Counted from the first letter of the stretch, positions 1 to 44,084 are shown. The stretch is DNA of 64,000 nucleotides from Actinomycetota bacterium (GCA_017856385.1 JAFMFD010000008.1:506-64505), one strand, 5' to 3'. Made by a program: numbers and translations. Notes: generated by a model not told the origin, from the sequence alone.

Positions 1-2512
1 CCTCGTCGAGGAGTGGCGTGCCGAGAAGGCAGCCCGCGGGGTGCTGGACTTCGCCGACCAGATCCGCCTCGCGGGCACCATCGCCGAGCGGTTCCCCGAG
101 GTCGTCGCCGACCTGCGCGAGCGCTTCCGGGTCGTCCTGCTCGACGAGTACCAGGACACCTCGATCGCCCAGCGGCAGCTGCTCCAGCGGATCTTCGGCG
201 ACGGCCATCCGGTCACCGCGGTGGGCGATCCGTGCCAGGCGATCTACGGCTGGCGGGGTGCCACGGTCGACAACATCGAGAGCTTCCCCCAGCACTTCGC
301 CGCGGGCAGCGGACCGGCCGATCGGCACGCGCTGTCGCAGAACCGCCGGTCCGGTCCGGTGATCCTCGACGTCGCCAACCGCACCTCCGAGCGGCTGAGG
401 GAGCTGCATGCCGGGGTGCGTCCTCTGGCCGCCGGCGAGAACGGCAAGGGCCCGGGGGTCGTCGCGTGCGCGCTCCTGGAGACCCACGCGCAGGAGGTCG
501 ACTGGGTCGTCTCGCAGATCGCGGCCACGCACGACTCCGGTCGCGTGCCCTGGCGCGACATCGCGGTGCTCGCCGCGACATCACACGACCTGGTGACCGT
601 CGACGCGGCCCTGCGCCGCCGGGGCATCCCCAGTCGGCTGATGGGCGCTGCGGCACTGCTCGCCCAGCCCGCGGTCGCCGACCTGCGGGCCATGCTGGAG
701 GTGATCCACGACCCGTGCGCCAATCCCTCCTTCGTGCGTCTGGCGGCAGGCCCGCGCTGGCGCATCGGTGCACGTGACCTCGCGGCGCTGGGTGAGCGCG
801 CGCACCGGATCGCGGGGGGTCGTGGTCGCACGCAGCATCCCGACCTCGCCGCCGCCCTCGACGAGGCGGTTGCGGGGATGGACGTGGCGGAGGTCGTCTC
901 GCTCACCGAGGCGCTCGACGACCTCGGTGACCCGGCGCAGTACTCGGCGCAGGCCCGTGAGCGGTTCGCGCAGTTCGCCGTCGAGCTCGCCGCGCTGCGG
1001 GCCCATGGGGGTGACCCGCTGCCGGACCTCCTGCTGCGTGTCATGCGCACGAGCGGTCTGGAGATCGAGGCCGCGTTGCGCGCGGACTCCGACGCCGGCC
1101 AGCAGGCCGCTGCGCTTCACGCATTCGTCGATCTCGCATCAGGCTTCACCGACATCGACGGCCGCGTGGGCCTCGGTGCCTTCCTCGCCCGCCTGCGCGA
1201 TGCCGAGCGACTCGGCAGCGATGTCGACTGCGAGATGCCCGGTGCCGTCGATGCGGTGTCGCTGCTGACCATCCACAAGGCGAAGGGCCTGGAGTTCCCC
1301 TACGTGTTCGTGCCCTTTGTCAGCGAGGGCTCCTTCCCGGGTGGTCGCGGGCGCCCGGTCTGGACCACCAGCGCGGCCACCGTGCCGTGGCCGCTGCGCC
1401 CCGATGCCACGCCGGCACTCGCCGCATTCCCGCCGGCCGGTGCGGCGCCGCGTCGCAAGGACCACGACGCCTACGTCGATCTGCTCCGGGGGATCGCGCA
1501 GGTCGACGACGACCGGCTCGCCTACGTCGCCTTCACCCGAGCGGAGCGTGGACTCGCCGTCTCGGGCCACTGGTGGGGGCCGACCCAGAAGACCCGGCGC
1601 GGCCCGTCCCGGTTCCTCACCGCGGTGCACGAGGCCTGCCTCGACGGCCTCGGCACGGTCGCGCACTGGGCCGAGCAGCCGGCGGACGACGCGACGAATC
1701 CGCAGCGCTCGGACTCCGGGTCGCATGCGTGGCCGACAGCGCTCGACGAGGCCGGACGCACGCTGCTGCTGGCCGCCGCCGACGCGGTGCGCACGGCACC
1801 CGCCCTGGAGGTCGCGCTGCCCGGGCTCGCCCTCGGCGACGCGCAGGCCGACCGGATCGCCGAGTGGGATGAGCAGGCGGCCGCGCTGCTGGCCGAGGCC
1901 CGCGCCCGCAGTGCTGACGACCATGTCGTCCGCCTGCCCTCGTCGATCTCGGTGAGCAGGCTGATGCAGGTGCTCGCCGAACCGCAGCAGGCGGCGCGCG
2001 ACCTCGCCCGGCCGATGCCGCGCCCGCCCAGCCGTGCCGCGCAGCGCGGCACCCGCTTCCATGCGTGGGTGGAGAGCCGCTACGGGCAGCAGTCACTGCT
2101 CGATCCCGACGACCTGCCGGGGGCGGCCGATGCGCACATCACCACCGACGACCAGCTGGCCGAGCTGAAGGCCGCGTTCGAGAGCAGTGCGTACGCACGT
2201 CGCACACCGGTTGGCGTCGAGGTGCCGTTTGCCCTGCTGCTCGGCGGCCGACTGGTCAACGGCCGCATCGATGCGGTGTTCTCGATCGACGAGCCCGGTG
2301 GCGCCACGACCTACGAGGTCGTCGACTGGAAGACGGGTGCGGCCGCCGGTGTCGATCCGATGCAGCTGGCCCTCTACCGGCTGGCCTGGGCGCAGATCGC
2401 CGGGGTCGATGTTGCCAAGGTCTCGGCGGCGTTCCTCATCGTCGCCACGGGTGAGGTGCTGCACCCCGATACCGATGCGCCGCTCGAGAAGCTCGTGCAG
2501 GTGCTCCGCTAG
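1..2512 (+). CDS. adnB: UvrD/Rep-family helicase-nuclease, C-terminal part (5' end outside window), AdnB-like
   Basis: Frame is open from nt 2. Helicase motif VLLDEYQDTS, UvrD_C motifs (TIHKAKGLEF, AFTRAE) and a C-terminal RecB-type nuclease module (GTRFHAWVE, IDAVF, EVVDWKTG, QLALY). Position next to nudC/mycoredoxin/uvrD2 matches M. tuberculosis adnB; the symbol rests on synteny only. Confidence 0.8.
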   Translation, partial: LVEEWRAEKAARGVLDFADQIRLAGTIAERFPEVVADLRERFRVVLLDEYQDTSIAQRQLLQRIFGDGHPVTAVGDPCQAIYGWRGATVDNIESFPQHFAAGSGPADRHALSQNRRSGPVILDVANRTSERLRELHAGVRPLAAGENGKGPGVVACALLETHAQEVDWVVSQIAATHDSGRVPWRDIAVLAATSHDLVTVDAALRRRGIPSRLMGAAALLAQPAVADLRAMLEVIHDPCANPSFVRLAAGPRWRIGARDLAALGERAHRIAGGRGRTQHPDLAAALDEAVAGMDVAEVVSLTEALDDLGDPAQYSAQARERFAQFAVELAALRAHGGDPLPDLLLRVMRTSGLEIEAALRADSDAGQQAAALHAFVDLASGFTDIDGRVGLGAFLARLRDAERLGSDVDCEMPGAVDAVSLLTIHKAKGLEFPYVFVPFVSEGSFPGGRGRPVWTTSAATVPWPLRPDATPALAAFPPAGAAPRRKDHDAYVDLLRGIAQVDDDRLAYVAFTRAERGLAVSGHWWGPTQKTRRGPSRFLTAVHEACLDGLGTVAHWAEQPADDATNPQRSDSGSHAWPTALDEAGRTLLLAAADAVRTAPALEVALPGLALGDAQADRIAEWDEQAAALLAEARARSADDHVVRLPSSISVSRLMQVLAEPQQAARDLARPMPRPPSRAAQRGTRFHAWVESRYGQQSLLDPDDLPGAADAHITTDDQLAELKAAFESSAYARRTPVGVEVPFALLLGGRLVNGRIDAVFSIDEPGGATTYEVVDWKTGAAAGVDPMQLALYRLAWAQIAGVDVAKVSAAFLIVATGEVLHPDTDAPLEKLVQVLR

Positions 2513-3921
2513 CGCGCCGCAGGTCCGGCATCCGCCGCGCCCGGATCGGGCGGTGGGAAGGGGTCGGTCGACGCCGTGGCGACCTCGATGGGCGCGCTGG
2601 AGTCGCCGGCGTCCTCGGCGATGGCGATGTCCTCGCCGGCCTCCTCCGTCGGTCGGCGACGCACACCCACCAGCCCGCGCATCCACTCGCGCGCCGGCTC
2701 CTCGACGAAGCGCCACATCAGCCACGCGATCACGAGTGCGCCGACGATGAGGCCCACGACCGCCACGGCATACAGCGCGCCGCCCTCGATGCCCACGGCC
2801 CGCAGGCCGGCACGCCACAGCCCGAACCACACCAGGTGGGTCATGTACAGCGAGTACGAGATGAAGCCGCCGAGCACCAGGGCGCGCGTGGACAGGAAGC
2901 GCGAAATGCCGCGGCGTGACAGGGCCAGCGCGCCGATCCACGCGACGAGCAGCGGGACGAGCAGCAGGTGGTAGTACGGCGGGAGCGGCTCGACATCGCC
3001 GTCGAGGACCATGTCGCCCGCCTGCGCCGGTCCCCACTGGCCGAGGAAGATCGCCCCGGCCACGACGAGCAGCGGCAGCACCACGGCGAGCACGTTCGCG
3101 GTGCGCTCGACGCGTGGGCCCGGAGGCTCGTCCATCGCATCGCCGGGCAGCAGTCGCACGATGATCAGGTAGGTGATCGCACCGGCGGTGAACTCGGTCA
3201 GGATGCGGTACGTCGATCCCCAGTTGTCCGTGTAGTAGGGGTCGGACGTCGACAGGCCGTAGATGACGAGCGGGGTCAGGCTCGCCACCCATGCGAGCGC
3301 CAGCACGATCGTCGGCACCCGGCGATGCAGCACCCACAGCAGCAGCACCAGCAGCGGGAAAAGCAGGTACGCGAGCCACTCCATCGACAGTGACCAGGCG
3401 ACGAAGTTCCAGCCGCGCTGCGGCTCCGGCCCCCACTCCTGGATGAGCAGCAGGTTCTTGACGAAGTCGACGGGGTTCCACCATGCGCGATCGACGGACT
3501 CGCCCTCGATCCGCGCCTGCGCGTACACCGCCAGGCCCGCGATCACCAGCATGACCAGGTGCACGGGATAGATGCGTGCCAGGCGCAGCCACCAGAAGTC
3601 GACGGTCCCTCGCGTGCGGAGCGCAGGGCCCATGCGGCGCAGGTAGGTGTGCGTGAGGATGAACCCCGACAGGGCGAAGAACAGGTCGACACCGAGCCGG
3701 CCGACGCGGAGCACGTCGGCGAAGCCCGCGAACAGCAGGCCGAGCTGGTTCAGGGGGCCCTGCAGGTGGTACAGCAGCACCCAGGCGGCCGCGACGAAGC
3801 GGATGCCGGTGAGTTGCCGGATGAAGACGTTCACGCGGGTCCTGGGGGTCTGGGCTGCAGGTCCGGCCATCGTGGCACGCGCGAGGGGCGGGGTCTGGTT
3901 AGGCTCGCTGACCGTGGCCAT
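2509..3921 (-). CDS. acyltransferase family 3 integral membrane protein (OafA/YrhL-like)
   Basis: ORF 2509..4038(-). Multi-TM protein with acyltransferase_3-type N-terminus (LTGIRFVAAAWVLLYHL, DLFFALSGFILTHTY). Start placed at ATG 3921 (GAGGG 8 nt upstream); ATG 3870 is an alternative. Confidence 0.8.
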   Translation of the reverse strand: MATVSEPNQTPPLARATMAGPAAQTPRTRVNVFIRQLTGIRFVAAAWVLLYHLQGPLNQLGLLFAGFADVLRVGRLGVDLFFALSGFILTHTYLRRMGPALRTRGTVDFWWLRLARIYPVHLVMLVIAGLAVYAQARIEGESVDRAWWNPVDFVKNLLLIQEWGPEPQRGWNFVAWSLSMEWLAYLLFPLLVLLLWVLHRRVPTIVLALAWVASLTPLVIYGLSTSDPYYTDNWGSTYRILTEFTAGAITYLIIVRLLPGDAMDEPPGPRVERTANVLAVVLPLLVVAGAIFLGQWGPAQAGDMVLDGDVEPLPPYYHLLLVPLLVAWIGALALSRRGISRFLSTRALVLGGFISYSLYMTHLVWFGLWRAGLRAVGIEGGALYAVAVVGLIVGALVIAWLMWRFVEEPAREWMRGLVGVRRRPTEEAGEDIAIAEDAGDSSAPIEVATASTDPFPPPDPGAADAGPAAR

Positions 3922-4858
3922 GCTCGACACCCTCATGCTCGCTCGATCGGGCGTCGACCGGGTCGCCGAGCGCAGGTCGGACGCGGAGTGGATCTCGGCA
4001 CGACTGGCCGACCCGGCCTCGCGTCTGATGTCGGTCAACGACGGTGCTGCCCCGGTGGTGCGCGATGCGCAGCAGGTAGCGCTGGCGCTGCGGTCGGTCG
4101 CGGACTCCGAAGTGACCGCCGAGGACGTCGCGTTCCTCGGCGTCGATGACGACGACGTCGCCTACTTCGTCGAGCATGTAGCCGACCGCGAGGGCCACGG
4201 GCCGGCCGAGTGGGGGAGCCTGCGCGATGTCGGGTCAGGCCTTGACGATCGCGACGCCGGACTGCTCGTCACCGCGGTGGCACTCGACAACTGGCGTCGC
4301 GGCCACGGCCGCTGCCCCCGGTGCGGTGCGCTGACGCTCGCGCGGCAGGCCGGCTGGTCGCGCACCTGCCCGTCCTGCGAGGCCCTGCACTTCCCGCGCA
4401 CTGATCCAGCGGTCATCGTCCTGGTGCGCGATGACGATGATCGAGCGCTGCTCGGCCGCCAGGGCCGCTGGCAGGAGGGCTGGTTCTCCACCCTCGCCGG
4501 CTTCGTCGACCCGGGAGAGTCGGCGGAGGCTGCCGTCCGTCGCGAGGTGCACGAGGAGTCCGGTGTCGTCATCGGGTCGCATCCGGACGACGTCGAGTAC
4601 CTCGGCAGCCAGCCCTGGCCTTTCCCGGCCTCGCTCATGCTCGGCTACCACGCACGCGCGGCGAGCACCGACATCGTCGTCGACGGCGAGGAGATCGCGC
4701 AGGCTCGCTGGTTCTCGCGCGCTGAGCTCATCGCGGAGTGCGAGGCGGGTGCGGTGCGCCTGCCACCCGACATCTCGATCGCCCGACGCCTCATCGAGCG
4801 CTGGTACGGCGGCGAACTGCCCGGCGACTGGTCGCGCCCGCTCGGCGTGGCACGCTGA
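3920..4858 (+). CDS. nudC: NADH pyrophosphatase NudC (Nudix hydrolase with zinc ribbon)
   Basis: CPRC...CPSC zinc ribbon, Nudix box GFVDPGESAEAAVRREVHEESGV and the NudC-specific SQPWPFPASLMLGY. Internal ATG 3920 of ORF 3647..4858 chosen; the upstream part is antisense to the acyltransferase gene. Confidence 0.9.
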   Translation: MLDTLMLARSGVDRVAERRSDAEWISARLADPASRLMSVNDGAAPVVRDAQQVALALRSVADSEVTAEDVAFLGVDDDDVAYFVEHVADREGHGPAEWGSLRDVGSGLDDRDAGLLVTAVALDNWRRGHGRCPRCGALTLARQAGWSRTCPSCEALHFPRTDPAVIVLVRDDDDRALLGRQGRWQEGWFSTLAGFVDPGESAEAAVRREVHEESGVVIGSHPDDVEYLGSQPWPFPASLMLGYHARAASTDIVVDGEEIAQARWFSRAELIAECEAGAVRLPPDISIARRLIERWYGGELPGDWSRPLGVAR

Positions 4859-5244: not shown

Positions 5245-7326
5245 GTGAGCCTGGACATCCTCGGCGGACTCGACGACGAGCAGCGTGCCGTCGCCGAGGC
5301 CGTCGACGGCCCTGTGGTCGTCCTCGCGGGTGCCGGCACGGGCAAGACGCGCGCCATCACCCACCGCATCGCCCACGCGGTGGGCACGGGGCAGCACGAG
5401 GCCCGACGCACCCTGGCGGTGACATTCACGACGCGGGCTGCGGGGGAGATGCGCACGCGACTGCGCACGCTGGGGGTCGATGGCGTCCAGGTGCGCACCT
5501 TCCACTCGGCCGCGCTTCGCCAGCTGCGCTACTTCTGGCCGCGGCTGAGCGGCGGAGAGTTCCCCGAGCTGCTGCCGGCGAAGGCACGGCTGGTCGCGGA
5601 GGCGGCCGCCCGCTGCGACCTGCCGACCGACACCGCGATGGTGCGCGACCTCGCCGGCGACCTCGAATGGGCCAAGGTGAACTTCCTGTCGGGCGAGGCA
5701 CTGGCCCAGCGCGCGGCGGCCGACCACCGCGCGCTTGCCGTCGACGCCGAGGTGCTTGGGCAGGTGCAGCGCGCGTACGAGGAGGCCAAGTCCCGTCGCG
5801 GGCTGCTCGACTTCGAGGACGTCCTGCTCGTCACGGCGGGTGCCCTCGAGCAGCGCCCCGACATCGCCGACGAGGTGCGCTCCACCTACCGCTGGTTCAC
5901 CGTCGACGAGTACCAGGACGTCAACCCGCTCCAGCACCGGCTGCTCGACCTGTGGCTCGGCGATCGCGACGACGTATGCGTCGTCGGCGACGCGAACCAG
6001 ACCATCTACACCTTCACCGGCGCCACCCCGGACTACCTGATCGGGTTCCGGCGCCGCTACCCGCAGGCGACCGAGGTCCGGCTGGTGCGCTGCTACCGCT
6101 GCACACCGCAGATCGTCGAGCTGGCGAATGCCGTCATCGCGCCGGCCACCGGCACCTCGCTCGTGCTGCGGTCGCAGCGCTCCCCGGGCAGTCCGCCCAC
6201 GGTCGAGGAGTGCGACGACGACGCTGACGAGGCGCAGTCGGTGGCTCGCCGCGTGCGCACTCATCTCGACGCAGGTGTGGCGGCGCGCGACATCGCGGTC
6301 CTCTTCCGGATCAACGCACAGTCGGAGGTGCTCGAGGAGGCGTTCGCCGAGGCCGGGATCCCCGTGGTCCTGCGCGGCACCGAGCGGTTCTTCGACCGAC
6401 CGGAGGTGCGCGAGGTGATCACGCGGCTGCGCGGCGCTGCGCGGGCCGGCGATGTCGGCGGCACGGTCGGGGAGGAGGTCCGTGCCGTGCTGGCGTCGGC
6501 CGGCTGGACGGCGGAGGCTCCGCGGTCGGCCGGGGCTGTGCGCGAGCGCTGGGAGTCGCTCTCGGCACTCGTCAGCCTCGCTGACGAGTGGTCCTCCCGC
6601 CCCGACGAGTCGGCGTCCTCCCTCTCGGGCTTCGTCGCCGAGCTCGACTCACGTGCCGAGGTCCAGCACGCCCCTGTCGCCGACGGCGTGACGCTCTCAT
6701 CGATCCATGCGGCGAAGGGCCTCGAATGGCGCGTCGTCCTGCTCGTCGGGTGCAGCGAGGGCCTGCTGCCGCTCCAGTACGCCGAGACCCCGGCACAGGT
6801 CGACGAGGAGCGACGGCTCGCCTACGTCGCCGTCACGCGCGCCGCCGAGCACCTGCATATCTCCTGGGCCCGTTCCCGCCAGGCCGGCGGCCGAGCGACC
6901 CGGGCTATCAGCTCGCTGCTGGCCGAGCCGCTGTCGTCGTCGGGGGTCACGCAGGGCCCGGTGCGCGGGTCCGTGTCCCCGGGATCGGGCGGACGCCGGC
7001 GGGAGCGCTCGCGCACCGGCCCGGCCCGCTGCCGGATCTGCCGCAAGGGCCTGGTCACCGCGCAGGAGCGCACGCTGGGCCGCTGCGACTCCTGCCCGGC
7101 CGACCTGAACGAGCCGCTCTTCGAGGCATTGCGCGCGTGGCGGCTGGAGACCTCGCGCGAGAAGTCCGTGCCGGCCTACGTCGTCTTCACCGACGCCACG
7201 CTGCGCGCCATCGCCGAGCAGCTGCCGGTCGACGAGCCGGGGCTGGAGCGCATCCCCGGCGTGGGGCCGATGAAGCTCGCCGCGTACGGGCCGATGGTTC
7301 TCGACCTCGTCCGCGCGCACGCATGA
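5245..7326 (+). CDS. uvrD2: ATP-dependent DNA helicase UvrD2
   Basis: Walker A AGAGTGKT, DEYQD, UvrD_C, tetra-Cys module CRIC...CDSC and a C-terminal HRDC-like domain (VVFTDATLRAIAEQLP). This architecture is diagnostic for actinobacterial UvrD2. Confidence 0.9.
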   Translation: MSLDILGGLDDEQRAVAEAVDGPVVVLAGAGTGKTRAITHRIAHAVGTGQHEARRTLAVTFTTRAAGEMRTRLRTLGVDGVQVRTFHSAALRQLRYFWPRLSGGEFPELLPAKARLVAEAAARCDLPTDTAMVRDLAGDLEWAKVNFLSGEALAQRAAADHRALAVDAEVLGQVQRAYEEAKSRRGLLDFEDVLLVTAGALEQRPDIADEVRSTYRWFTVDEYQDVNPLQHRLLDLWLGDRDDVCVVGDANQTIYTFTGATPDYLIGFRRRYPQATEVRLVRCYRCTPQIVELANAVIAPATGTSLVLRSQRSPGSPPTVEECDDDADEAQSVARRVRTHLDAGVAARDIAVLFRINAQSEVLEEAFAEAGIPVVLRGTERFFDRPEVREVITRLRGAARAGDVGGTVGEEVRAVLASAGWTAEAPRSAGAVRERWESLSALVSLADEWSSRPDESASSLSGFVAELDSRAEVQHAPVADGVTLSSIHAAKGLEWRVVLLVGCSEGLLPLQYAETPAQVDEERRLAYVAVTRAAEHLHISWARSRQAGGRATRAISSLLAEPLSSSGVTQGPVRGSVSPGSGGRRRERSRTGPARCRICRKGLVTAQERTLGRCDSCPADLNEPLFEALRAWRLETSREKSVPAYVVFTDATLRAIAEQLPVDEPGLERIPGVGPMKLAAYGPMVLDLVRAHA

Positions 7327-35103: not shown

Positions 35104-35213
35104 CAGCTCCCCGACCCGTCGTCCGCCCCCGACTGCCCCGCCAGTGTATGTCGACGGCCCGGCGACCTCGGTTTCCGACGTCCGGTGTCAGGGGCCGTCG
35201 ATACATTCGCCCA

Positions 35214-35249
35214 ATGCTGGTGCAGGTCGACATGCTGGTGCAGGTGGAC
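35214..35249 (+). repeat. 18-bp tandem duplication at the nuclease gene start
   Basis: ATGCTGGTGCAGGTCGAC / ATGCTGGTGCAGGTGGAC (MLVQVD twice). Confidence 0.9.
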
Positions 35250-36140
35250 GACGCCGCCTCCGGCGTGCTGCCCGAGGTCTGGTCCCCCTCCTCGCTGAAC
35301 TCCTTCCTCGGCTGCCCCCTGGCCTACTGGTGGCGCTATGCGCAGGGCTGGCGTGGCGTCCCCACGGCGGCGATGGAGGCCGGCACCCTCGTGCACGACG
35401 TCCTCGAGCGCCTGCTCGAACTGGAGCCCGACGAGCGGACGCGTGAGCGGGCACGCGACCTGTACGCCGAGGAGGCGGCCGCCCTGGCCGACCGGCTCGA
35501 TCCGCGCATCGACCGCGATGACCTGCGCGCCCGCGCCGGAGCGGCACTCGCCAACTACTTCGATCAGGAGCAGCCCGAGCTCGTCGACGTCGTGCCCGAG
35601 GGCCTCGAGCGGAAGGTCTCGGCGACCCTGGACGGCGTGCCCATCGCCGGGCTCGTCGACCGCCTGGAGTTCGCGACCGCCGGTGCCCGGGTGCTCGACT
35701 ACAAGACCGGCGGGGCCAAGCCGCGGTACGCCGGCGACTACTGGCGGCAGGTGCTGCTGTATGCGCGGATGCTCGGCGAGCAGGGCACCGACGTCGCCGA
35801 GGTAGCCCTGATGTACCTCGGCTCGCCCGCGCGCACCCTCGTCCGGCCCACGCCGCCCCAGGCGCTCGACCGGGTGCAGGGCGACCTCGTGCGGGCGCAG
35901 GGAGAGCGCCTGCAGGCTCATGACGCGTCCGTGTGGCCGGCCCGACCGGGTCCGCTGTGCCAGTACTGCCCGTACCGCTCCGCCTGCCCGGCCGTCGACG
36001 AGCGGGCGCGGCCGACCCCGGGCACCGAGCCCAGCCACCGCCTTCTCGAGGCCAGCCCGGACGTCATGCGGAGGGTCGCGTCGACGCCGGTCGACGACGA
36101 GGACGTGCCGCTTGCCGACCTCGACGAGGGTGCGCCATGA
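35214..36140 (+). CDS. PD-(D/E)XK nuclease with Cas4/AddB-type 4-Cys cluster
   Basis: GCPLAYW plus CQYCPYRSAC. GTLVHDVLE, VDRLEF, VLDYKTG, QVLLYARM. Start ATG 35214 or 35232 within ORF 35148..36140. Confidence 0.8.
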   Translation: MLVQVDMLVQVDDAASGVLPEVWSPSSLNSFLGCPLAYWWRYAQGWRGVPTAAMEAGTLVHDVLERLLELEPDERTRERARDLYAEEAAALADRLDPRIDRDDLRARAGAALANYFDQEQPELVDVVPEGLERKVSATLDGVPIAGLVDRLEFATAGARVLDYKTGGAKPRYAGDYWRQVLLYARMLGEQGTDVAEVALMYLGSPARTLVRPTPPQALDRVQGDLVRAQGERLQAHDASVWPARPGPLCQYCPYRSACPAVDERARPTPGTEPSHRLLEASPDVMRRVASTPVDDEDVPLADLDEGAP

Positions 36141-37936
36141 CCGTGCCCGTCCCCGCGTGGGATCCGCCGTGGGAGGCCAAGGGCGCACCCGGCTTCGTGC
36201 GCGTCACCAGCGTCATGACCCGAGACCAGGGCTGTCCCGAGCAGGTCGCGCGCAAGGCCCGTCCCGACCTGTATCCCGTCGCCCGCGCCCCGCGCGAGCC
36301 CTCCGGGCTCGGCTCCTTCCCGCTCGGCCTGGTCCGCGACGCCGCGCTGCTGCTGCTCACCACCCCGGCGGAGGCCGGCCCGGCCGCGGTCCGCATCCAC
36401 GATGCGGTGGCGAAGGCCGCCGCGCAGTCGCGCGACGACTGGCCCGACGAGTCGGTGGCGGCGGCCGAGGCTGGGGTGCTGGGCTACCTGGAGGTCCTGG
36501 AGTCCCTGCGCGCGGCCGGCGAGCTGCCGGAGAGTGTGGTGGTCGCGGACGTCGTCGCGGTGCAGGACCCTGAGGGTGAGCGCACGGAGTTCTGGGGATG
36601 GGCGGTCCACCACGTCAGTCGCGACGGCTCGGTGCGCGAGGTGCATCTCCTGCGCTGGCGGCGTGCGGGCGACGTGCCGCTTGGTCCGGCCGAGCCTGCC
36701 TTCCTCGCCCACGTCGCGGGCAGCGGCTTCGTCGCCGACACGTCGAGCGGGTGGTGGAAGCCGTTCCGGCCGACTCGGTCGATGGCCCAGCCGCCTGCGG
36801 CGGACACCGTGCGCGTGCGCGTCATCGGCGTGCTCGACGGGTCCAGCGACGTGCGGTTCACCGGCTCACCGCAGGAGGCCGAGCAGGCCTTCCTCGCGCA
36901 GGTGCCCGGGACGCTCGGCCGGCTCGCCGGCGGGGCGACGCGTGCCGGTCGCGGCTGCGGCACCTGCAACGTGCGCCACGTCTGCGAAGGCGTGCCGCAG
37001 TATCCGGGACTGCTCGGCATCGCGGGGTTCTCGACGAGACTGCGTGCGCTCTCACCGTCGGACCTGTGGACCCATGCCGCATGCCCCCGCCAGCTGCACC
37101 TGCTGCGCGACCTCGGCCTGCCGCGCGAGCGGCAGGAGCCGTCCGACGCGCTGCGTCGCGGCACCGCCGTCCATGACTGGCTCCGACTCGCGCACGAGCG
37201 GGGAGAGCCCTGCCGCGAGGCCGATCTCGACGCGAACGGGGGCGCGGCACTGCATGAGGTGCTCGGCTGGAGCTCGGACGACCTCGCGGCCCGCGCCCCG
37301 TACCTGCGCCAGCACCTGGCGCTGTGCCCGTGGTCCGACGCGGACGTCACCCGCATGGTGTCCGAGGTCGACATCACCGCGTGGGACACCGACGCCAACG
37401 TGCTGTTCAGCACGCGACCCGATGCCGCGTACCTCGCGGCCGACGGCCGGTGGGTGCTGCGCGAGATCAAGACCCTCAGTCCACGCAACCTGCCCGACGA
37501 CCCCAACGACCTGCTGGTCCGCTACCCGCAGGTGGCGGCGGCCGTCTGCCTCCTCGCCGACGGCTACCGACCCGATGCCCAGCCCACCCCGGGCCCGGGC
37601 CGCGTCGAGCTCGAGCTGCTGGGGCCCGAGGCCGGTCGCGTGCTCGTCTTCGATGCCGCTGATCCGGTGACGGTGCTCGTGGCCCGCACGGCGCTGGCCG
37701 GTCGGGTCGACGCCTGGCTGTTCGACGACGAGCACCCGATCGGGGTGCGGCCGCCGTGCGCGACGTGCGAGGTCGCCCGCTGGTGCGACCGTCGGCCCGC
37801 CGACGTGCTCGACGTGGCGGCCGAGGGCCTGACCGTGCCGCAGGCCACCGGCCCGGACTGGGATGTGCAGGCGCCCGATGTGGTGCTGCGCGACCTGATG
37901 GGCGTGGCCTCGGACGAAGAGGAGTTCCCCTTCTGA
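36137..37936 (+). CDS. tandem double PD-(D/E)XK / Cas4-like nuclease-fold protein (599 aa)
   Basis: ATGA overlap with the upstream gene. N-module GCPEQV plus CGTCNVRHVC (no ExK). C-module ACPRQL, GTAVHDWL, PDAAYL, LREIKT, CATCEVARWC. Confidence 0.8.
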   Translation: MTVPVPAWDPPWEAKGAPGFVRVTSVMTRDQGCPEQVARKARPDLYPVARAPREPSGLGSFPLGLVRDAALLLLTTPAEAGPAAVRIHDAVAKAAAQSRDDWPDESVAAAEAGVLGYLEVLESLRAAGELPESVVVADVVAVQDPEGERTEFWGWAVHHVSRDGSVREVHLLRWRRAGDVPLGPAEPAFLAHVAGSGFVADTSSGWWKPFRPTRSMAQPPAADTVRVRVIGVLDGSSDVRFTGSPQEAEQAFLAQVPGTLGRLAGGATRAGRGCGTCNVRHVCEGVPQYPGLLGIAGFSTRLRALSPSDLWTHAACPRQLHLLRDLGLPRERQEPSDALRRGTAVHDWLRLAHERGEPCREADLDANGGAALHEVLGWSSDDLAARAPYLRQHLALCPWSDADVTRMVSEVDITAWDTDANVLFSTRPDAAYLAADGRWVLREIKTLSPRNLPDDPNDLLVRYPQVAAAVCLLADGYRPDAQPTPGPGRVELELLGPEAGRVLVFDAADPVTVLVARTALAGRVDAWLFDDEHPIGVRPPCATCEVARWCDRRPADVLDVAAEGLTVPQATGPDWDVQAPDVVLRDLMGVASDEEEFPF

Positions 37937-37959: not shown

Positions 37960-40926
37960 TCAGGGCAGGGCGAGGTCCGGATGGGCCGCGTCAAAGGCCT
38001 GCTCCACCTCGATCGGGATACGGCCCCGTGCGGAGATCTCGAACCCGGCTGACGGAGCCCACTGCCGGATGCGGGAGATCTTCTCCGCGCGCGTGGCGCG
38101 ACCCGCGGGCGGCGTGACACCCGCATCGAAGCGCGCTGAGCTGCGGATCTCCGCGGGGGCACCGAGCTCCTGGATCACGGCCGGCTCCGGCAGGTCGACG
38201 ACCTCGATGCCCTGCTCGACGGCTGCCGCGCGCACATGCGCGTGGTGAGTGGTGAGGATGACCTGGCGGTCGCCGGCCCACGCCGCGAGGGCGTGCAGGG
38301 CGATGCCGGTGCGGTCGTCGTCGAAGGCGAGCAGGACGTCGTCGAGGACGACCGGCAGGGCGGTGACGCCCTGGGCGTGCTGCTGGGCCAGGCGATGCTC
38401 GAGGCCTGCGAGGCGCAGGGCGAGGAACACCTGGTCGGCGGTGCCCTCGGACAGCGCGTCGACGGTGACCGGCTCGCGGTCGCGTCGGTGGATGCGCAGC
38501 GTGCGCCGGCCGTCACCGGCCTCGCGCGACGACAGCGCGACGTAGCGACCCTCGGTCAGGGACTCCAGCAGCTCTCCGGCCCGATCGAGCGTGCTCGAGC
38601 CGTGGGCGAGGACCTGCGCCTCGAGCCGGTCATCGAGCAGGCGCAGTGCGATGACCGTCCGCGCGTACTCCTCGACCAGCTCTGCCAGGTGGTCGCGTGC
38701 GCTGCGGGCCTCCTGCGCGGCGGCCGCCGCATCGTCGGCCTCCTCGGCTTCGCGAAGTGCGTGATCGGCGGCCACCCGAACGTCGCGCGCCTCCTCGTAC
38801 TCGGCGATTCGCTCGTTGCGCTCGGCACGTCGCTCGTCGACCTCGTCCGCCAGGTCGGACGGCACCGCTGCGGCCAGGCGCTCGATCGCGGCGTCGACCT
38901 GCGCATCGGTCTCGAACACGGCCCGCAGCGGGATCCGCGCGTTCACGAGCTCGGTGGTGCGCTCGTCATGCTCGATCGTGCGTTCGGCCAGCTCCGCAAG
39001 GCCGTCCAGGCTGGACGGGTGCGTGGACTCGACGAGCGCGTCGAGCTGGTGCGCGATCACGCCCTCCTCATCGGCCGCCTCGGCGATGCGGGCCGCGATT
39101 CGCTCGTGCTCGCCGCGCAGGCGGGCGAGCTCCTGCCGCGCTTCACGCGCCCGCTGCAGCTGGTCGTGGAGCTGGGCCACCTGACCGGGAACGTCTGCGA
39201 CGACATCATGACGACGCGCCACCGTGGCCACGGACTCGGCGAAGGCGGACCACTGCGCCGCTTGCGCGGCGACCTGCTCCTGCGCCGCGGTCCAGGAGCG
39301 CAGGCCCTCGGCCAGCTGCTCCAGCAGCGAGGCCCTGGTCGACCAGCCCTCATCGGTGAGTCCGGCGGGCAGGCCGGCCGCCGCTGCGACGTCGGACCAG
39401 CGCCGCTCGGCGGCCTCGAGGTCGTCGCGGCGGGTGCTCTCCTCGCGAGCGGTGCGCTGGGCGCGACGCGCCAGCTCGTCGGCGCGGGCATCGAGGCGTG
39501 ACCACGCGGAAAGGTCCGAGGCGAATCGGTCGGCCGCCTCGTCGGCCCGCTGCTGGGCCTGCTCGAGCCGGGTCGCGAGGGCGTTGCGCGCAGCGTCGTC
39601 GAGCACTCGGCCGAGGGCGGCCGCCACGTCGTGCCATGCCGCATCCCGCGAGTCGCGCGCTGCGGTGACCTCGGCCGGGTCGACCTCGGCGGCCTCGCCG
39701 AGCTCCTCTCGGCGCTGCGCGAGTTCTGCCTCGGCCTCGCGTCGGGCCTCCCGCGCCTGCTGCCACACGAGCCTCGCCTGCCCGGCCTCATCCGCTCGGG
39801 CCTGCAGACCCGCCGCGACGTCGTCGCCGACGAGCAGCGCGGCAGCGGACGCGTGCAGGGACTCCGGTTCGGGGACCGGTGCCTGCAGGCGCTCGAGCAG
39901 CGCGACGACGTCGGCGCGCGCCTCGTGCTCAGCCGTGCGCGAGGTCTCCGCGGCCGCGCGGTGCGCCTGCGCCTGCGCCAGCCCGCGGTTGGCCTCGTCG
40001 ATGGGCTCGGCGTCGTCGAGGATCGGATCGGCGGCGGGGGATGCGGCGATCTGGCGCGCGATGGCGTCGAGGTCGCGCGGCAGGTGCTCGCGCTCCTGCT
40101 GCACGGTTGCGAGGTCGGCGATCAGGTCGACCGTGCGTCGGGCATCGGCAATGGGCATGAGACCGGCTGCCGCGAGGTCCGCCGCGGCCCCCTGGAGGCG
40201 GACTACTGCTGCGACGTAGTCCAGGGCGCTGATGTCGCGCTCGAGCCGATGGAGCGTCGTGGAGACCTCGTCACGCCGCTCGCGGGCCACCGCCTCGTCG
40301 CGCAGGGCCTCCTGCACCTGGTTCGCGAGGACCCGGATGCGGGCGGGGTCGACGGTGGCGCGCGACTCGCGCTCGCGGGCGGCCTCGAGAGCCGTGACGG
40401 CGTCAGCGATGAGGGAGTGCGCACTCCTGCGGGGGCGGAACAGGGCCTCGGCGCGTCGGGCGAGCCGATTCCGCAGGCGCCGTGCGCTGAAGCCCTCGTG
40501 GGAGAGGAAGATGACATCGGCCAGGTCGCCCGTGCCGGTGACCAGCTGGCGCCCGCCCTCGCGCATCGCGGCATGGTCCAGGCCGTGCGTGTCGAGCCAG
40601 GGCCCCCACCCCCGGACGGCGGGCAGCCAAGGGTCATCGATCCGGGTGAGGTCGTCGGCGCGCAGCACCTCCGACGGCGTGCGCCGGTACTCCACCGAGC
40701 CCACCGCGTAGGTCGCGATCGTGAACCGGACGCCGAGGTCGGTGGGTCGCACGCCATGGACGGAGGTGCGGGGCAGTCCGGACACCACAGCATCGAGTCC
40801 GGCGAGAAGCGTGCTCTTGCCGGCCTCATTGCGGCCGAACACCACGGTCAGCCCGGGCGCGAAGCTCAGCGTCGTCGGGCCCAGTACGCCGAACGGCGCG
40901 AAGGTGACGTCCGCGAGGTGGCTCAC
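37960..40926 (-). CDS. SbcC/Rad50/YhaN-like AAA ATPase with C-terminal Lsr2-type DNA-binding domain
   Basis: Walker A GRNEAGKST, long coiled-coil, signature LSEGTADQ, Walker B VVLDDVLLAFDD. C-terminus RIRQWAPSAGFEISARGRIPIEVEQAFDAA. Confidence 0.85.
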   Translation of the reverse strand: MSHLADVTFAPFGVLGPTTLSFAPGLTVVFGRNEAGKSTLLAGLDAVVSGLPRTSVHGVRPTDLGVRFTIATYAVGSVEYRRTPSEVLRADDLTRIDDPWLPAVRGWGPWLDTHGLDHAAMREGGRQLVTGTGDLADVIFLSHEGFSARRLRNRLARRAEALFRPRRSAHSLIADAVTALEAARERESRATVDPARIRVLANQVQEALRDEAVARERRDEVSTTLHRLERDISALDYVAAVVRLQGAAADLAAAGLMPIADARRTVDLIADLATVQQEREHLPRDLDAIARQIAASPAADPILDDAEPIDEANRGLAQAQAHRAAAETSRTAEHEARADVVALLERLQAPVPEPESLHASAAALLVGDDVAAGLQARADEAGQARLVWQQAREARREAEAELAQRREELGEAAEVDPAEVTAARDSRDAAWHDVAAALGRVLDDAARNALATRLEQAQQRADEAADRFASDLSAWSRLDARADELARRAQRTAREESTRRDDLEAAERRWSDVAAAAGLPAGLTDEGWSTRASLLEQLAEGLRSWTAAQEQVAAQAAQWSAFAESVATVARRHDVVADVPGQVAQLHDQLQRAREARQELARLRGEHERIAARIAEAADEEGVIAHQLDALVESTHPSSLDGLAELAERTIEHDERTTELVNARIPLRAVFETDAQVDAAIERLAAAVPSDLADEVDERRAERNERIAEYEEARDVRVAADHALREAEEADDAAAAAQEARSARDHLAELVEEYARTVIALRLLDDRLEAQVLAHGSSTLDRAGELLESLTEGRYVALSSREAGDGRRTLRIHRRDREPVTVDALSEGTADQVFLALRLAGLEHRLAQQHAQGVTALPVVLDDVLLAFDDDRTGIALHALAAWAGDRQVILTTHHAHVRAAAVEQGIEVVDLPEPAVIQELGAPAEIRSSARFDAGVTPPAGRATRAEKISRIRQWAPSAGFEISARGRIPIEVEQAFDAAHPDLALP

Positions 40927-42167
40927 GGTGTGTCTCCTGCAGAGAGCTCGTCGAGCAGCTCCTGCCCGGCCTCGGCGATCAGCGCGGACAGTGCCGTGGA
41001 TGAGCTGAGGTCCACACCGGAGTCGCGCAGCAGCGCCTGCGTGCGCGTGCGCACCTCCGTCAGCAGCGCACTTGCCTCGCCCGGCGCGAGGTCGTCGATG
41101 GCGCGCTCGAGCTCCGCGCGCAGCGCGGCATCCACGACGGGCGCGTCGGACTCCTCGTGCGGCGCTCGGTGCAGCGTCACCTTCTCCAGCGTGGAGCCGG
41201 CCACCACATCGCGGACCAGCTCGGTGAGCTCCTCAGAGGCGCGCAGTGCACCCAGAAGGCGGGGATCGGCGGTGATGCGCGTGCGGACGATGAGCGGCAG
41301 CGAACCGCTGTGGGCGCGCAGTTGCTGGTGGTCCGCGGCGATCGCGGCCAGCACGTCGTCGGCGGACGACATCGGGCGCGCGGGATCGGTCGCGTCGACC
41401 TCGATGACCTCCCAGCGCAGCACGTCCAGCGGTTGGAACTGCACGTGCGGGGCCCGTGGGTCGGCGAGGTCGACCAGCAGGGCGCCCTTGGGGCCGGTCT
41501 CGCGCACCGATCGGCCCTGGAGGTTGCCGGGGTAGGCGGCGAAGGTGCGCTGGCCGTCGAGGAAGCTGCGACGTGCGTGGACGTGGCCGAGGGCGACGTA
41601 GCTGTAGTCGAGGCTGCGGAGGTCGTCAGCGGTGCAGGGCGAGTAGTTGTCGTGCCCGGACGACCCGCCCACATTCGCGTGCAGGACGCCGATGTTCACC
41701 AGGCCGGGATCCGGCAGCGGGTAGTGCGCGGCCAGCGAGTGCTCGATGGCCGGCGTCGCGTAGCCCTGACCATGGAACGACAGTCCCGCGTCGTCGAGAC
41801 GGAGCGTCTCGGCTGACTCGACCGACAGCACGTGCATGGATGGGGGGTAGATGACCTCCGCCATCAGCACGCTCGCCGCATCGTGGTTGCCGCTCGCCAT
41901 GACGACGGGGATCCCGGCATCGGCGAGGTCGCGCATGCCCTCCACGAACACGCGTCGCGTGCCCGTGTGCTTCCACGACCCGTCGAAGATGTCGCCCGCG
42001 AGCACGAGTGCGTCCGGCTGCTCGGTGATCGCCCAGTCGATCAGGCCGCGGAAGGCGGAGCGGGTCGCACCGGAGATGAGGTCGGCGTCGGCGTGGTCGG
42101 CCAGCGCCGACGACAGCCCGGAGAGCTGGCTGTCGATGTGCAGGTCGGCGGCGTGGATGATGCGCAT
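40923..42167 (-). CDS. SbcD/Mre11/YhaO-like metallophosphoesterase (DNA repair exonuclease)
   Basis: IIHAADLHID, LAGDIFD, SGNHD, GHVH motifs. Stop overlaps the ATPase start. Confidence 0.85.
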   Translation of the reverse strand: MRIIHAADLHIDSQLSGLSSALADHADADLISGATRSAFRGLIDWAITEQPDALVLAGDIFDGSWKHTGTRRVFVEGMRDLADAGIPVVMASGNHDAASVLMAEVIYPPSMHVLSVESAETLRLDDAGLSFHGQGYATPAIEHSLAAHYPLPDPGLVNIGVLHANVGGSSGHDNYSPCTADDLRSLDYSYVALGHVHARRSFLDGQRTFAAYPGNLQGRSVRETGPKGALLVDLADPRAPHVQFQPLDVLRWEVIEVDATDPARPMSSADDVLAAIAADHQQLRAHSGSLPLIVRTRITADPRLLGALRASEELTELVRDVVAGSTLEKVTLHRAPHEESDAPVVDAALRAELERAIDDLAPGEASALLTEVRTRTQALLRDSGVDLSSSTALSALIAEAGQELLDELSAGDTP

Positions 42168-42263
42168 GCCGGACCCTCCCTGCGACCGCGGTGACCGATC
42201 TTCACCCTACGGGGCGCGGCCGACATCGAGCAGGCGCCGCGGCAGGTCCCGCGGGACCGGCGG

Positions 42264-43084: not shown

Positions 43085-43722
43085 GGCACCGTCGACTGCC
43101 CGACGAGCTCGAAGTACGCCTGCGTGATCAGCACCCGCAGGTTCCCGCTCGGGCCCGGGTCCAGGCCCAACTGCTTGGCCAGGCGCGCCACGGCCTTGGC
43201 GACCGCGGGCTCGGTGAGGCTCCTGCGCCGGGCGATCTCGGCGTTCGAGCAGCCCTCGGCCACCAGTCGCATGACCTCGATCTGGTTGTCGCTCAGCGCG
43301 CGTCCTGCCGTGCTGGCCTTCAGGCCCTGCGGGGCCTTGCGCTCCTTGCACGGCGCCGCCAGCGCAGTCTCGATCGCCCCCGTCAGGAGCTCGGCATTCG
43401 CGATCGACCGCTTCGACAGGTAGATCAGGCCGACGGGCAGGTCCCGTGGGGATCCGATCAGCCGAGGATCCTGGTAGGTCGACAGCATGACCAGGGCGAT
43501 GGCCGGCAGGCGCTTGCGCAGCGCGTGGGCGACGTCGATGCCGTTCGGGCCGCCGCCGAGGTCGAGGTCGAGCAGGGCCAGGTCCGGACGGTGCTGCTCA
43601 GCGAGGGGCATCGCGGCCGCCGCGGACGGGGCATCGACGACGACCTCGGCGCCCAGCGAGCTCACCGTGCGCACCAGCAGGAAGCGCGTGAAGTCGTCGT
43701 CCTCCACGATGAGTGCCCGCAT
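43075..43722 (-). CDS. orphan LuxR/NarL-family response regulator
   Basis: MRALIVEDDDFTR, LALLDLDLG, LuxR HTH LSDNQIEVMRLVAEGCSNAEIARRR. No adjacent intact kinase. Confidence 0.85.
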   Translation of the reverse strand: MRALIVEDDDFTRFLLVRTVSSLGAEVVVDAPSAAAAMPLAEQHRPDLALLDLDLGGGPNGIDVAHALRKRLPAIALVMLSTYQDPRLIGSPRDLPVGLIYLSKRSIANAELLTGAIETALAAPCKERKAPQGLKASTAGRALSDNQIEVMRLVAEGCSNAEIARRRSLTEPAVAKAVARLAKQLGLDPGPSGNLRVLITQAYFELVGQSTVPRG

Positions 43723-43847
43723 GGCTCCTCCTGGCGTCTGGGCCCCGGGGTCGCCGGGGCGATGGGGACATCGTGGCCGAGTGTGCCCGGGACGCCCCGG
43801 GCCGCGCGACCTTTCGGGGTGCTGGCACCCCGTCTAGGATCGCGGGC

Positions 43848-44084
43848 ATGTCCAACCTACGCGTGGAGCCGGCCAACCCGTCCTGGACCGCCACCAAGGT
43901 GGTCGCCGTCATCGTCGCGGTCCTCACCGTCGGCTACATGGCGCCGTGGGCCATCGCAGCGGTACGCGACGTGCCCCACTGGAGTGTGTTCTGGGTGAAC
44001 CTGCTGCTGGGCTGGACCATCATCGGATGGGTCATCGCGCTGGTGATGTCGCTGCGCCGCCAGCGACTGGTCATCGAGGGCTAG
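43848..44084 (+). CDS. superinfection-immunity-family small membrane protein (78 aa)
   Basis: YMAPWAIAAVR...NLLLGWTIIGWVIALVMSL matches the Imm_superinfect pattern. TAGGAT sits 7 nt upstream of the ATG, suggesting a possible leaderless mRNA. Confidence 0.7.
   Translation: MSNLRVEPANPSWTATKVVAVIVAVLTVGYMAPWAIAAVRDVPHWSVFWVNLLLGWTIIGWVIALVMSLRRQRLVIEG

Follow-up and report, generated by a model that had tools for sequence, protein, structure and literature searches.

A YhaN/SbcE-type ATPase with a C-terminal Lsr2-type DNA-binding domain: a probable DNA anchor on a chromosomal break-processing complex in Actinomycetota

The 64,000-nt stretch of DNA analysed here, from an uncultured bacterium of the phylum Actinomycetota (GCA_017856385.1, JAFMFD010000008.1:506-64505; hereafter the window, with positions counted from its first letter), encodes on its minus strand (37960..40926) a 988-aa ATPase resembling structural maintenance of chromosomes (SMC) proteins, of the YhaN/SbcE type, which ends in an Lsr2-type DNA-binding domain. 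The interpretation that we hold to be probable is that this tail acts as a DNA anchor on a damage-inducible, chromosomal break-processing complex of the YhaO-YhaN (SbcF-SbcE) type, and not as a discriminator between self and non-self. The genomic context points to repair and not to defence: the locus belongs to the core genome, neither mobile copies nor a match to a defence family were found in the collections searched, and a PafBC-type promoter motif precedes the operon.

The last 46 codons of the ATPase gene (37963..38100, minus strand) translate to RATRAEKISRIRQWAPSAGFEISARGRIPIEVEQAFDAAHPDLALP. An earlier sequence-only reading of the window had proposed that they encode the DNA-binding domain of Lsr2 together with its RGR minor-groove hook, and the peptide it quoted is an exact substring of the translation. 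Both proposals are borne out, and the likeness to Lsr2 goes far beyond coincidence. A profile search of the end of the protein, which that reading had suggested as a check, gave a significant match: in the whole ATPase, the Pfam model PF23359 (Lsr2_DNA-bd) covers residues 951-981 and scores 39.5 bits, with an E value of 3.6e-10 and a gathering score of 26.9 to be passed; in the isolated 67-aa tail it reaches 41.3 bits. A phmmer search against PDB sequences matched the Lsr2 C-domains 2kng, 6qkp and 6qkq (E 1.3e-4). The hook is present as R967-G968-R969 (38020..38028, minus strand). Residues R84, W86 and R97-G98-R99 of Mycobacterium tuberculosis Lsr2 align with R954, W956 and R967-G968-R969 of the ATPase, and the R, W, G and RGR positions are invariant or nearly so in alignments of the tail with 69 Lsr2-family proteins. 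A profile built from 15 such tails retrieved PF23359-bearing proteins, down to E 3e-23, and those with names were mostly called 'Lsr2 family' or 'histone-like nucleoid-structuring protein Lsr2'. Searching phage genomes with the 46-aa tail by tblastn returned 310 actinophage records; of the 40 matches listed, one has no annotation and one is called 'hypothetical protein', and all the others are annotated as Lsr2 or Lsr2-like.

Structure prediction gave the same picture. The AlphaFold2 (AF2) model of the tail is a helix-loop-helix (helices at 25-39 and 51-60 of the modelled peptide), and its top Foldseek match is 2kng, with a root-mean-square deviation of 1.2 Å over 35 columns, 46% identity and a probability of 0.97. 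The full-length AF2 model, made from an alignment of YhaN relatives only, independently yields this fold, with a block-mean predicted local distance difference test (pLDDT) score of 91-94 over most of the domain. In that model, the domain spans residues 946-981 (37984..38091, minus strand) and comprises a helix at 946-960, the RGR-bearing loop and a helix at 972-981.

The likeness to Lsr2 of M. tuberculosis (Rv3597c; structures 2KNG, 6QKP and 6QKQ) includes the helix-loop-helix, the RGR hook and the equivalents of R84 and W86, at an identity of 46% over 35 aligned positions. Unlike in Lsr2, the two arginines that follow the W-A pair (WARRNG) are replaced in the window tail (WAPSAG), and the domain is joined to an ATPase head. 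The N-terminal oligomerisation domain of Lsr2 (PF11774) had no Pfam match in the ATPase, the N-terminus of which is the ATPase head. Because this domain is absent, the protein would be unable to bridge DNA or form filaments as Lsr2 does. Judged by its domain content, the ATPase possesses a domain of Lsr2 without being an Lsr2 protein itself. Translation of the window in all six frames revealed no second Lsr2 domain.

The tail is connected to the ATPase head by a linker (residues 916-945; 38092..38181, minus strand), which has a conserved short helix at 924-935 followed by a disordered part at 934-942 (AF2 pLDDT below 50). Its invariant columns are I918, L921, G922, P924 and R928; otherwise, it is the segment with the lowest amino-acid identity (0.34-0.41). 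The motif here reads I..LG.P..IR, and other actinobacterial YhaN proteins have [ST]R.P.E[IV]R. Beyond the Lsr2-type domain, the protein closes with the extension HPDLALP (37963..37983, minus strand), specific to a subfamily of about 990 aa in which H982, P983 and L985 are invariant and the ending is HPDL.L[SP]; other tail-bearing YhaN proteins lack it. Both the linker helix motif and the HPDL.L[SP] end might be interaction motifs.

The tail is under purifying selection. When the window ATPase is compared with its closest orthologue, the ratio of nonsynonymous to synonymous substitution rates (dN/dS) is lowest in the tail (0.13), followed by the heads (0.26), the linker (0.44) and the coiled coil (0.49), with the reservation that dS is close to saturation and these figures, like the overall linker range of 0.44-1.0, are rough.

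The ATPase itself is read from an open reading frame of 988 codons with a GTG start and a stop codon at 37960-37962; its guanine-cytosine (GC) content at third codon positions (0.89) is coding-like, and the gene is conserved in orthologues. The N-terminal head lobe (residues 1-190; 40357..40926, minus strand) bears the Walker A motif GRNEAGKS at 31-38. It is followed by a long antiparallel coiled-coil arm (residues 194-790; 38557..40347, minus strand), rich in Ala, Arg and Glu and devoid of Cys, which AF2 renders as helices with short breaks. The C-terminal head lobe (residues 795-911; 38194..38544, minus strand) contains the signature LSEGT at 825, the Walker B motif DDVL at 862 and the His switch THH at 893. 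Pfam assigns the N-terminus to AAA_27, the YhaN domain, with 79.2 bits against a threshold of 22 (E 4e-22), with further matches to AAA_23 and SMC_N. A Foldseek search with the full-length AF2 model (pLDDT 85.8) matched chains of condensin, Smc5/6 (SMC), Rad50, MukB and JetC.

The sequence-only reading had called the protein a Rad50/SbcC-like ATPase, which holds at the level of the SMC/Rad50 superfamily and fails for Rad50/SbcC proper. Since there is no cysteine in the entire sequence, the CxxC zinc hook is absent; the NCBIfam Rad50 models reach 12-13 bits where their cut-offs lie at 700-1000, and the SbcC equivalogs are likewise far under their cut-offs. On these two grounds, Rad50/SbcC proper was rejected as the identity of the protein. 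Relatives of the ATPase carry the NCBI and JGI name 'YhaN family protein', and by its sequence features it belongs to the YhaN/SbcE family. Compared with SbcCD and Mre11-Rad50, it shares the ABC-type head split by a coiled coil, the ATP motifs and a nuclease partner of the Mre11 family, whereas it lacks the zinc hook and falls into the separate AAA_27 family.

The closer counterpart is SbcE (YhaN)-SbcF (YhaO) of Bacillus subtilis. Bacillus SbcE also lacks CxxC, and a conserved hydrophobic 'unique central domain' between two heptad regions has been described in it (PMC2811018). Common to both systems are the AAA_27/YhaN-type N-terminal head, the long coiled coil without CxxC and an ATPase gene placed directly after a gene for an SbcD-like metallophosphoesterase. 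In contrast, the sequence similarity is remote, and the window ATPase adds the linker and the Lsr2 C-domain.

As the sequence-only reading had supposed, the partner is an Mre11-like nuclease: a 414-aa SbcD/YhaO(SbcF)-like protein is encoded immediately upstream (40923..42167, minus strand), and its stop codon overlaps the GTG start of the ATPase by 4 bp. It matches Pfam Metallophos (E 1e-11), the NCBIfam sbcd subfamily (E 5e-18) and Mre11 models, and all of its phosphoesterase motifs (DLH, GD, GNHD and GHVH) are seen in the translation. The nuclease thus looks catalytically intact and translationally coupled to the ATPase. In almost every one of 80 related loci, the ATPase gene is immediately preceded by a homologue of this nuclease.

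Convergent to this operon lies a pair of PD-(D/E)XK nuclease genes on the plus strand. Nuclease A (35232..36140; about 302 aa from the ATG at 35232) is Cas4/AddB-nuclease-like, with a Pfam PDDEXK_1 match (E 5e-35) and partial NCBIfam matches to cas4, addB and addA. Nuclease B (36137..37936; 599 aa) matches PDDEXK_1 (E 2e-19) and, at E 2e-52, the PADLOC model PDLC02423 'PprPDDEXK'; it has no NCBIfam match, and the meaning of the PADLOC name was not traced in the literature. The two genes overlap by ATGA and are translationally coupled, and B ends 23 bp from the stop codon of the ATPase.

The PafBC-dependent promoter has the consensus tGTCgg(N10)tA(N3)T (PMC8635444), and in mycobacteria, PafBC switches on the majority of the genes induced by DNA damage (PMC6789036). 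Perfect matches to this PafBC/RecA-NDp consensus occur twice in the window against 0.10 expected, a number that one of 100 shuffles reaches. One of them, TGTCGG-N10-TAGGGT (TGTCGGCCGCGCCCCGTAGGGT; 42225..42204, minus strand), stands before the nuclease-ATPase operon; its -10 element ends 36 nt ahead of the nuclease ATG, with a Shine-Dalgarno-like GGGAGGG in between. The other, TGTCAG-N10-TACATT (TGTCAGGGGCCGTCGATACATT; 35186..35207, plus strand), lies just upstream of the in-frame ATG at 35232 of the PD-(D/E)XK pair. As the window has no other perfect match, both operons may be suggested to belong to a DNA-damage regulon. Among the related loci, the motif before the PD-(D/E)XK pair is also present in L001 and L005, and the one before the nuclease-ATPase operon in L004, L026 and L028; copies of the latter were seen in Actinomycetota bacterium UBA10649 (aGTCGG..TAGGGT), in a metagenome-assembled genome (MAG) of Dermatophilaceae and in Pseudonocardia (both TGTCGGTG). 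The background is 14 matches in 965 kb of strand. An earlier scan with a stricter RecA-NDp pattern that allowed mismatches, made before the core motif was used, gave a chance-level result, and no convincing LexA box was seen near the operon. In the PafBC regulon literature searched, the main texts do not name any Rv1277/Rv1278 orthologue.

The order of the nuclease and ATPase genes, the convergent PD-(D/E)XK pair and the flanking genes are kept in relatives down to 41% identity. The synteny of the pair was seen in loci L001-L008, and among the 80 loci its adjacency to the ATPase operon is limited to the lineage of the window. Because gene order and flanking housekeeping genes are conserved over this range, the locus appears to be vertically inherited. 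The window as a whole is ordinary core chromosome, with genes for UPF0182, a Zincin_2 peptidase, a PDZ-Lon protease, an ammonium transporter, FolP, MMPL, DsbB and others. No close relative on an actinobacterial plasmid or on any phage was found in the collections searched.

Against PADLOC-DB 2.0, the ATPase had weak matches at the P-loop level only (the best being mad3 with 33.9 bits, the others at most 17 bits), and the SbcD-like nuclease had none. With Lamassu LmuB, Wadjet JetC, Gabija GajA, PARIS AriA, Septu PtuA and MADS mad3, the ATPase shares the generic ABC/SMC fold and the P-loop. Unlike for these anti-phage ATPases, however, the matches are weak and partial, no partner genes of Lamassu, Wadjet, Gabija, PARIS, Septu or MADS are found at the locus, where the neighbours are housekeeping genes, and the operon is a core-genome one with a DNA-damage promoter motif.

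Next to the window itself, the sequence-only reading had raised the matter of whether orthologues share the tail, which turned out to be common among actinobacterial YhaN-type proteins. In a genome scan that sampled one genome per species, matches covering the tail came from Saccharothrix, Lentzea, Actinosynnema, Parafrankia, Frankia and Kineococcus, as well as from Dermatophilaceae, Nanopelagicales and other Actinomycetota MAGs. Overall, about 24 genomes from several actinobacterial orders bear the tail, which scores 55-77 bits with a locally built hidden Markov model of it. The scan found no tail outside Actinomycetota; proteobacterial, planctomycete and myxobacterial relatives stop straight after the ATPase head. 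When 1.84 billion cluster representatives were searched exhaustively with HMMER, the family came to 3032 members at E<=1e-10. Of the 150 nearest ones, at least 37 have the tail, and a few others bear it in a diverged form. When the tail profile, or a profile of the head lobe plus tail, was used in protein searches, chiefly short fragments were retrieved, and no census of architectures resulted. No mycobacterial relatives were among the protein-search or genome-scan matches, and the clusters of tail-less relatives of about 915 aa yielded nothing but unnamed proteins from metagenomes.

In a tree of the head, which is a crude neighbour-joining tree and not a rigorous phylogeny, the tail-bearers fall into a single actinobacterial clade, in which tail-less members (some Pseudonocardia and two MAGs) are scattered. 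Since the tail-bearers share one clade, such a topology suggests a single old gain of the tail, followed by losses. We take the fusion to be old and common in Actinomycetota.

The C-terminus of YhaN has been extended in another manner as well. In Nocardiopsis (L034, L035, L036 and L039) and in the metagenomic relatives P0018 and P0270, the tail follows the pattern C..C-(F.H)-GRGRPP-.RCP.CR, which we read as a zinc ribbon around an AT-hook-like RGRP core, with Pfam zinc-ribbon matches that are mostly sub-threshold and in one case exactly at the threshold. By its motif, the YhaN of Nocardiopsis carries a second and unrelated type of minor-groove hook in the place where the Lsr2 tail sits in its relatives. 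A further parallel is provided by cluster J mycobacteriophages (Omega, Corndog), which encode Ku-Lsr2 fusions with an Lsr2 C-domain of about 30 aa, RGR included, at the C-terminus of Ku (PMC8612146). Here too, the Lsr2 C-domain sits at the C-terminus of a double-strand-break repair protein that binds DNA ends; the differences are that the partner is Ku, of the non-homologous end-joining pathway, instead of an SMC-like ATPase, and that the fusion is phage-encoded instead of chromosomal. By analogy with these phage proteins, break-repair proteins seem to use the Lsr2 C-domain as a portable module for binding DNA. The RGRP hook of Nocardiopsis at the same position, the phage Ku-Lsr2 and the age of the YhaN fusion together suggest that break-repair proteins in Actinomycetota have repeatedly arrived at a minor-groove anchor.

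Under the anchor interpretation, the ATPase would be a subunit of a Mre11/Rad50-like DNA-end-processing complex, one of the chromosomal, damage-inducible repair systems of an uncultured freshwater actinobacterium with a high GC content. An ATPase dimer would present two tethered minor-groove hooks, each on a flexible linker of about 30 residues. These hooks would most likely lengthen the residence of the complex on duplex DNA, probably with the mild preference of Lsr2 for adenine-thymine (AT) pairs or a narrow groove, and would help to load or hold the complex beside breaks or hairpins, where the nuclease would process the ends.

The sequence-only reading had leaned towards another role, in which the fusion restricts AT-rich foreign DNA, and had offered the anchor for a repair complex as its fallback. 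The Lsr2 C-domain favours AT-rich DNA, and SMC-like ATPases serve Lamassu, Wadjet and other defence systems. It is conceivable that, in a genome of 71% GC, the Lsr2 tail steers the complex to AT-rich acquired DNA, which the nuclease then degrades or processes. The confirmed fold and RGR hook of the window tail, taken with the AT preference of Lsr2, agree with such a role, and so do the defence-system SMC-like structures among the Foldseek matches of the ATPase, the strong PADLOC match of the neighbouring 599-aa PD-(D/E)XK protein and the neighbours of the operon in Saccharothrix, Lentzea and Actinosynnema. In these three genera, the operon is divergent from genes for a TerB_N/TerB/TerB_C protein of about 770 aa and a 440-aa BrxC/D-family ATPase that is about 96% identical across genera (L010, L012-L015, L017, L030 and L033; about 800..4450 in locus coordinates), an assemblage with the flavour of a conflict system. 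We rejected it as general evidence of defence, as it is restricted to that clade. Tail-bearing loci all lie in DNA of 65-76% GC, and two tail-less loci from Actinomycetota MAGs have 57-66% GC; this would also fit restriction, but few loci were compared, and phylogeny confounds the pattern. Against this role stand the core-genome synteny, where features of mobile elements or defence islands were not seen, the failure to find plasmid or phage copies in the collections searched, the lack of any defence match of the ATPase and the SbcD-like nuclease beyond the P-loop, and the PafBC-type motif ahead of the operon. Moreover, no safeguard separating self from non-self is evident, although the AT-rich regions of the host would be targets too, and sister lineages have lost RGR yet keep the rest of the system. 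Restriction of foreign DNA is therefore unsupported and, in our opinion, very unlikely, and it is the fallback of that reading that the context of the locus supports better. A wider proposal, in which tethered hooks of both kinds (the Lsr2 C-domain in most lineages and the GRGRPP zinc ribbon of Nocardiopsis) read base composition or DNA shape and direct the nuclease either to AT-rich foreign DNA, as a restriction by composition tied to the way Lsr2 silences genes, or to AT-rich sites that form secondary structures, we also regard as decidedly unlikely; if true, it would constitute a new targeting principle for SMC-like nucleases.

The hook might instead select particular structures or sequences within genome maintenance, such as hairpins, cruciforms, palindromes rich in AT or A-tracts with a narrow groove. 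These are the natural substrates of SbcCD-type nucleases, which are known to cut hairpins and cruciforms (PMC4787754, PMC6265447); the occurrence of two unrelated RGR-type hooks at the same position also suggests selection for minor-groove reading itself. On the other side, the window has no AT-rich islands (its minimum is 56% GC per 200 bp), and sequence data hardly separate structure targeting from a generic anchor. We find structure targeting unlikely.

Several observations weigh against the anchor that we favour, and some of them lead to one more alternative. Where the window has RGRIP, the sister lineages P0003, P0005 and P0243 have AKRIP, SKRIP and TRRIP, respectively, and Pfam misses the domain in P0003, which has lost RGR, and also in P0004 and P0241, which have kept it. 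Because sister lineages have lost RGR or fallen below Pfam detection, the role of the tail in the ~990-aa subfamily may be drifting or independent of the hook. In its extreme form, this would make the tail a decaying or repurposed remnant in the subfamily, for instance a protein-interaction peptide that includes the HPDL end, with little role in DNA binding. It would fit that the RGR-less tails (L008/P0003, P0005 and P0243; Actinomycetota bacterium UBA10649 is an example) retain the equivalents of W956, R969-I970-P971, F978 and H982-P983-L985. Yet the window ATPase and its closest relative score well above the Pfam threshold, and P0002 (62% identical to the window ATPase) keeps the tail and passes that threshold; R954, W956 and RGR are preserved, and the tail has the lowest dN/dS of all segments. 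That the window tail is such a remnant is, in our view, highly doubtful. Also to be set against the damage-inducible anchor are the presence of the PafBC-type motif before the operon in just four of about 32 actinobacterial loci and its absence from the corresponding stretch of the closest orthologue, L001, where the promoter may sit further upstream. The conflict-system neighbours in the Saccharothrix, Lentzea and Actinosynnema clade, the roughness of the dN/dS figures and the fact that DNA binding by the tail is deduced from homology only count on the same side.

In the literature searched, we found no description of an Lsr2-YhaN architecture or of Lsr2 combined with SbcC or SbcD, and nothing on PF23359, and the literature found on Rv1278 merely lists the gene. 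Both component families are known, and the architecture is already visible in the precomputed Pfam annotations of public proteins; the finding alone alters no established view. To our knowledge, YhaO/YhaN (SbcEF; Rv1277/Rv1278-type) is the least understood Mre11/Rad50-like system of Gram-positives, and its role in Actinomycetota is essentially unstudied. The Lsr2-hook clade, the RGRP-hook clade and the PafBC-type motif together offer an experimental handle on it, and the fusion ties the biology of nucleoid proteins to double-strand-break repair.

Hints of further Lsr2_DNA-bd architectures came from P0426, P0190 and P0237. They include a 339-aa protein that combines a histone H1-like HC2 domain (PF07382) with PF23359, and short metagenomic PF23359 fragments with the JGI names DNA polymerase III epsilon or PIF1 helicase.

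The window sequence is represented in metagenomes of aquatic, freshwater, lake and drinking-water origin. Two helicase genes lie about 30 kb from the ATPase operon, and the region is rich in DNA-repair genes: an AdnA/AdnB-like helicase-nuclease with UvrD and PD-(D/E)XK domains, cut by the start of the window (41..2512, plus strand), and a UvrD-family, UvrD2-like helicase with an HRDC domain (5245..7326, plus strand). Finally, a small gene with a superinfection-immunity domain (Imm_superinfect; 43713..44084, plus strand) stays beside a gene with a CysS_C domain in all relatives of the window's lineage.

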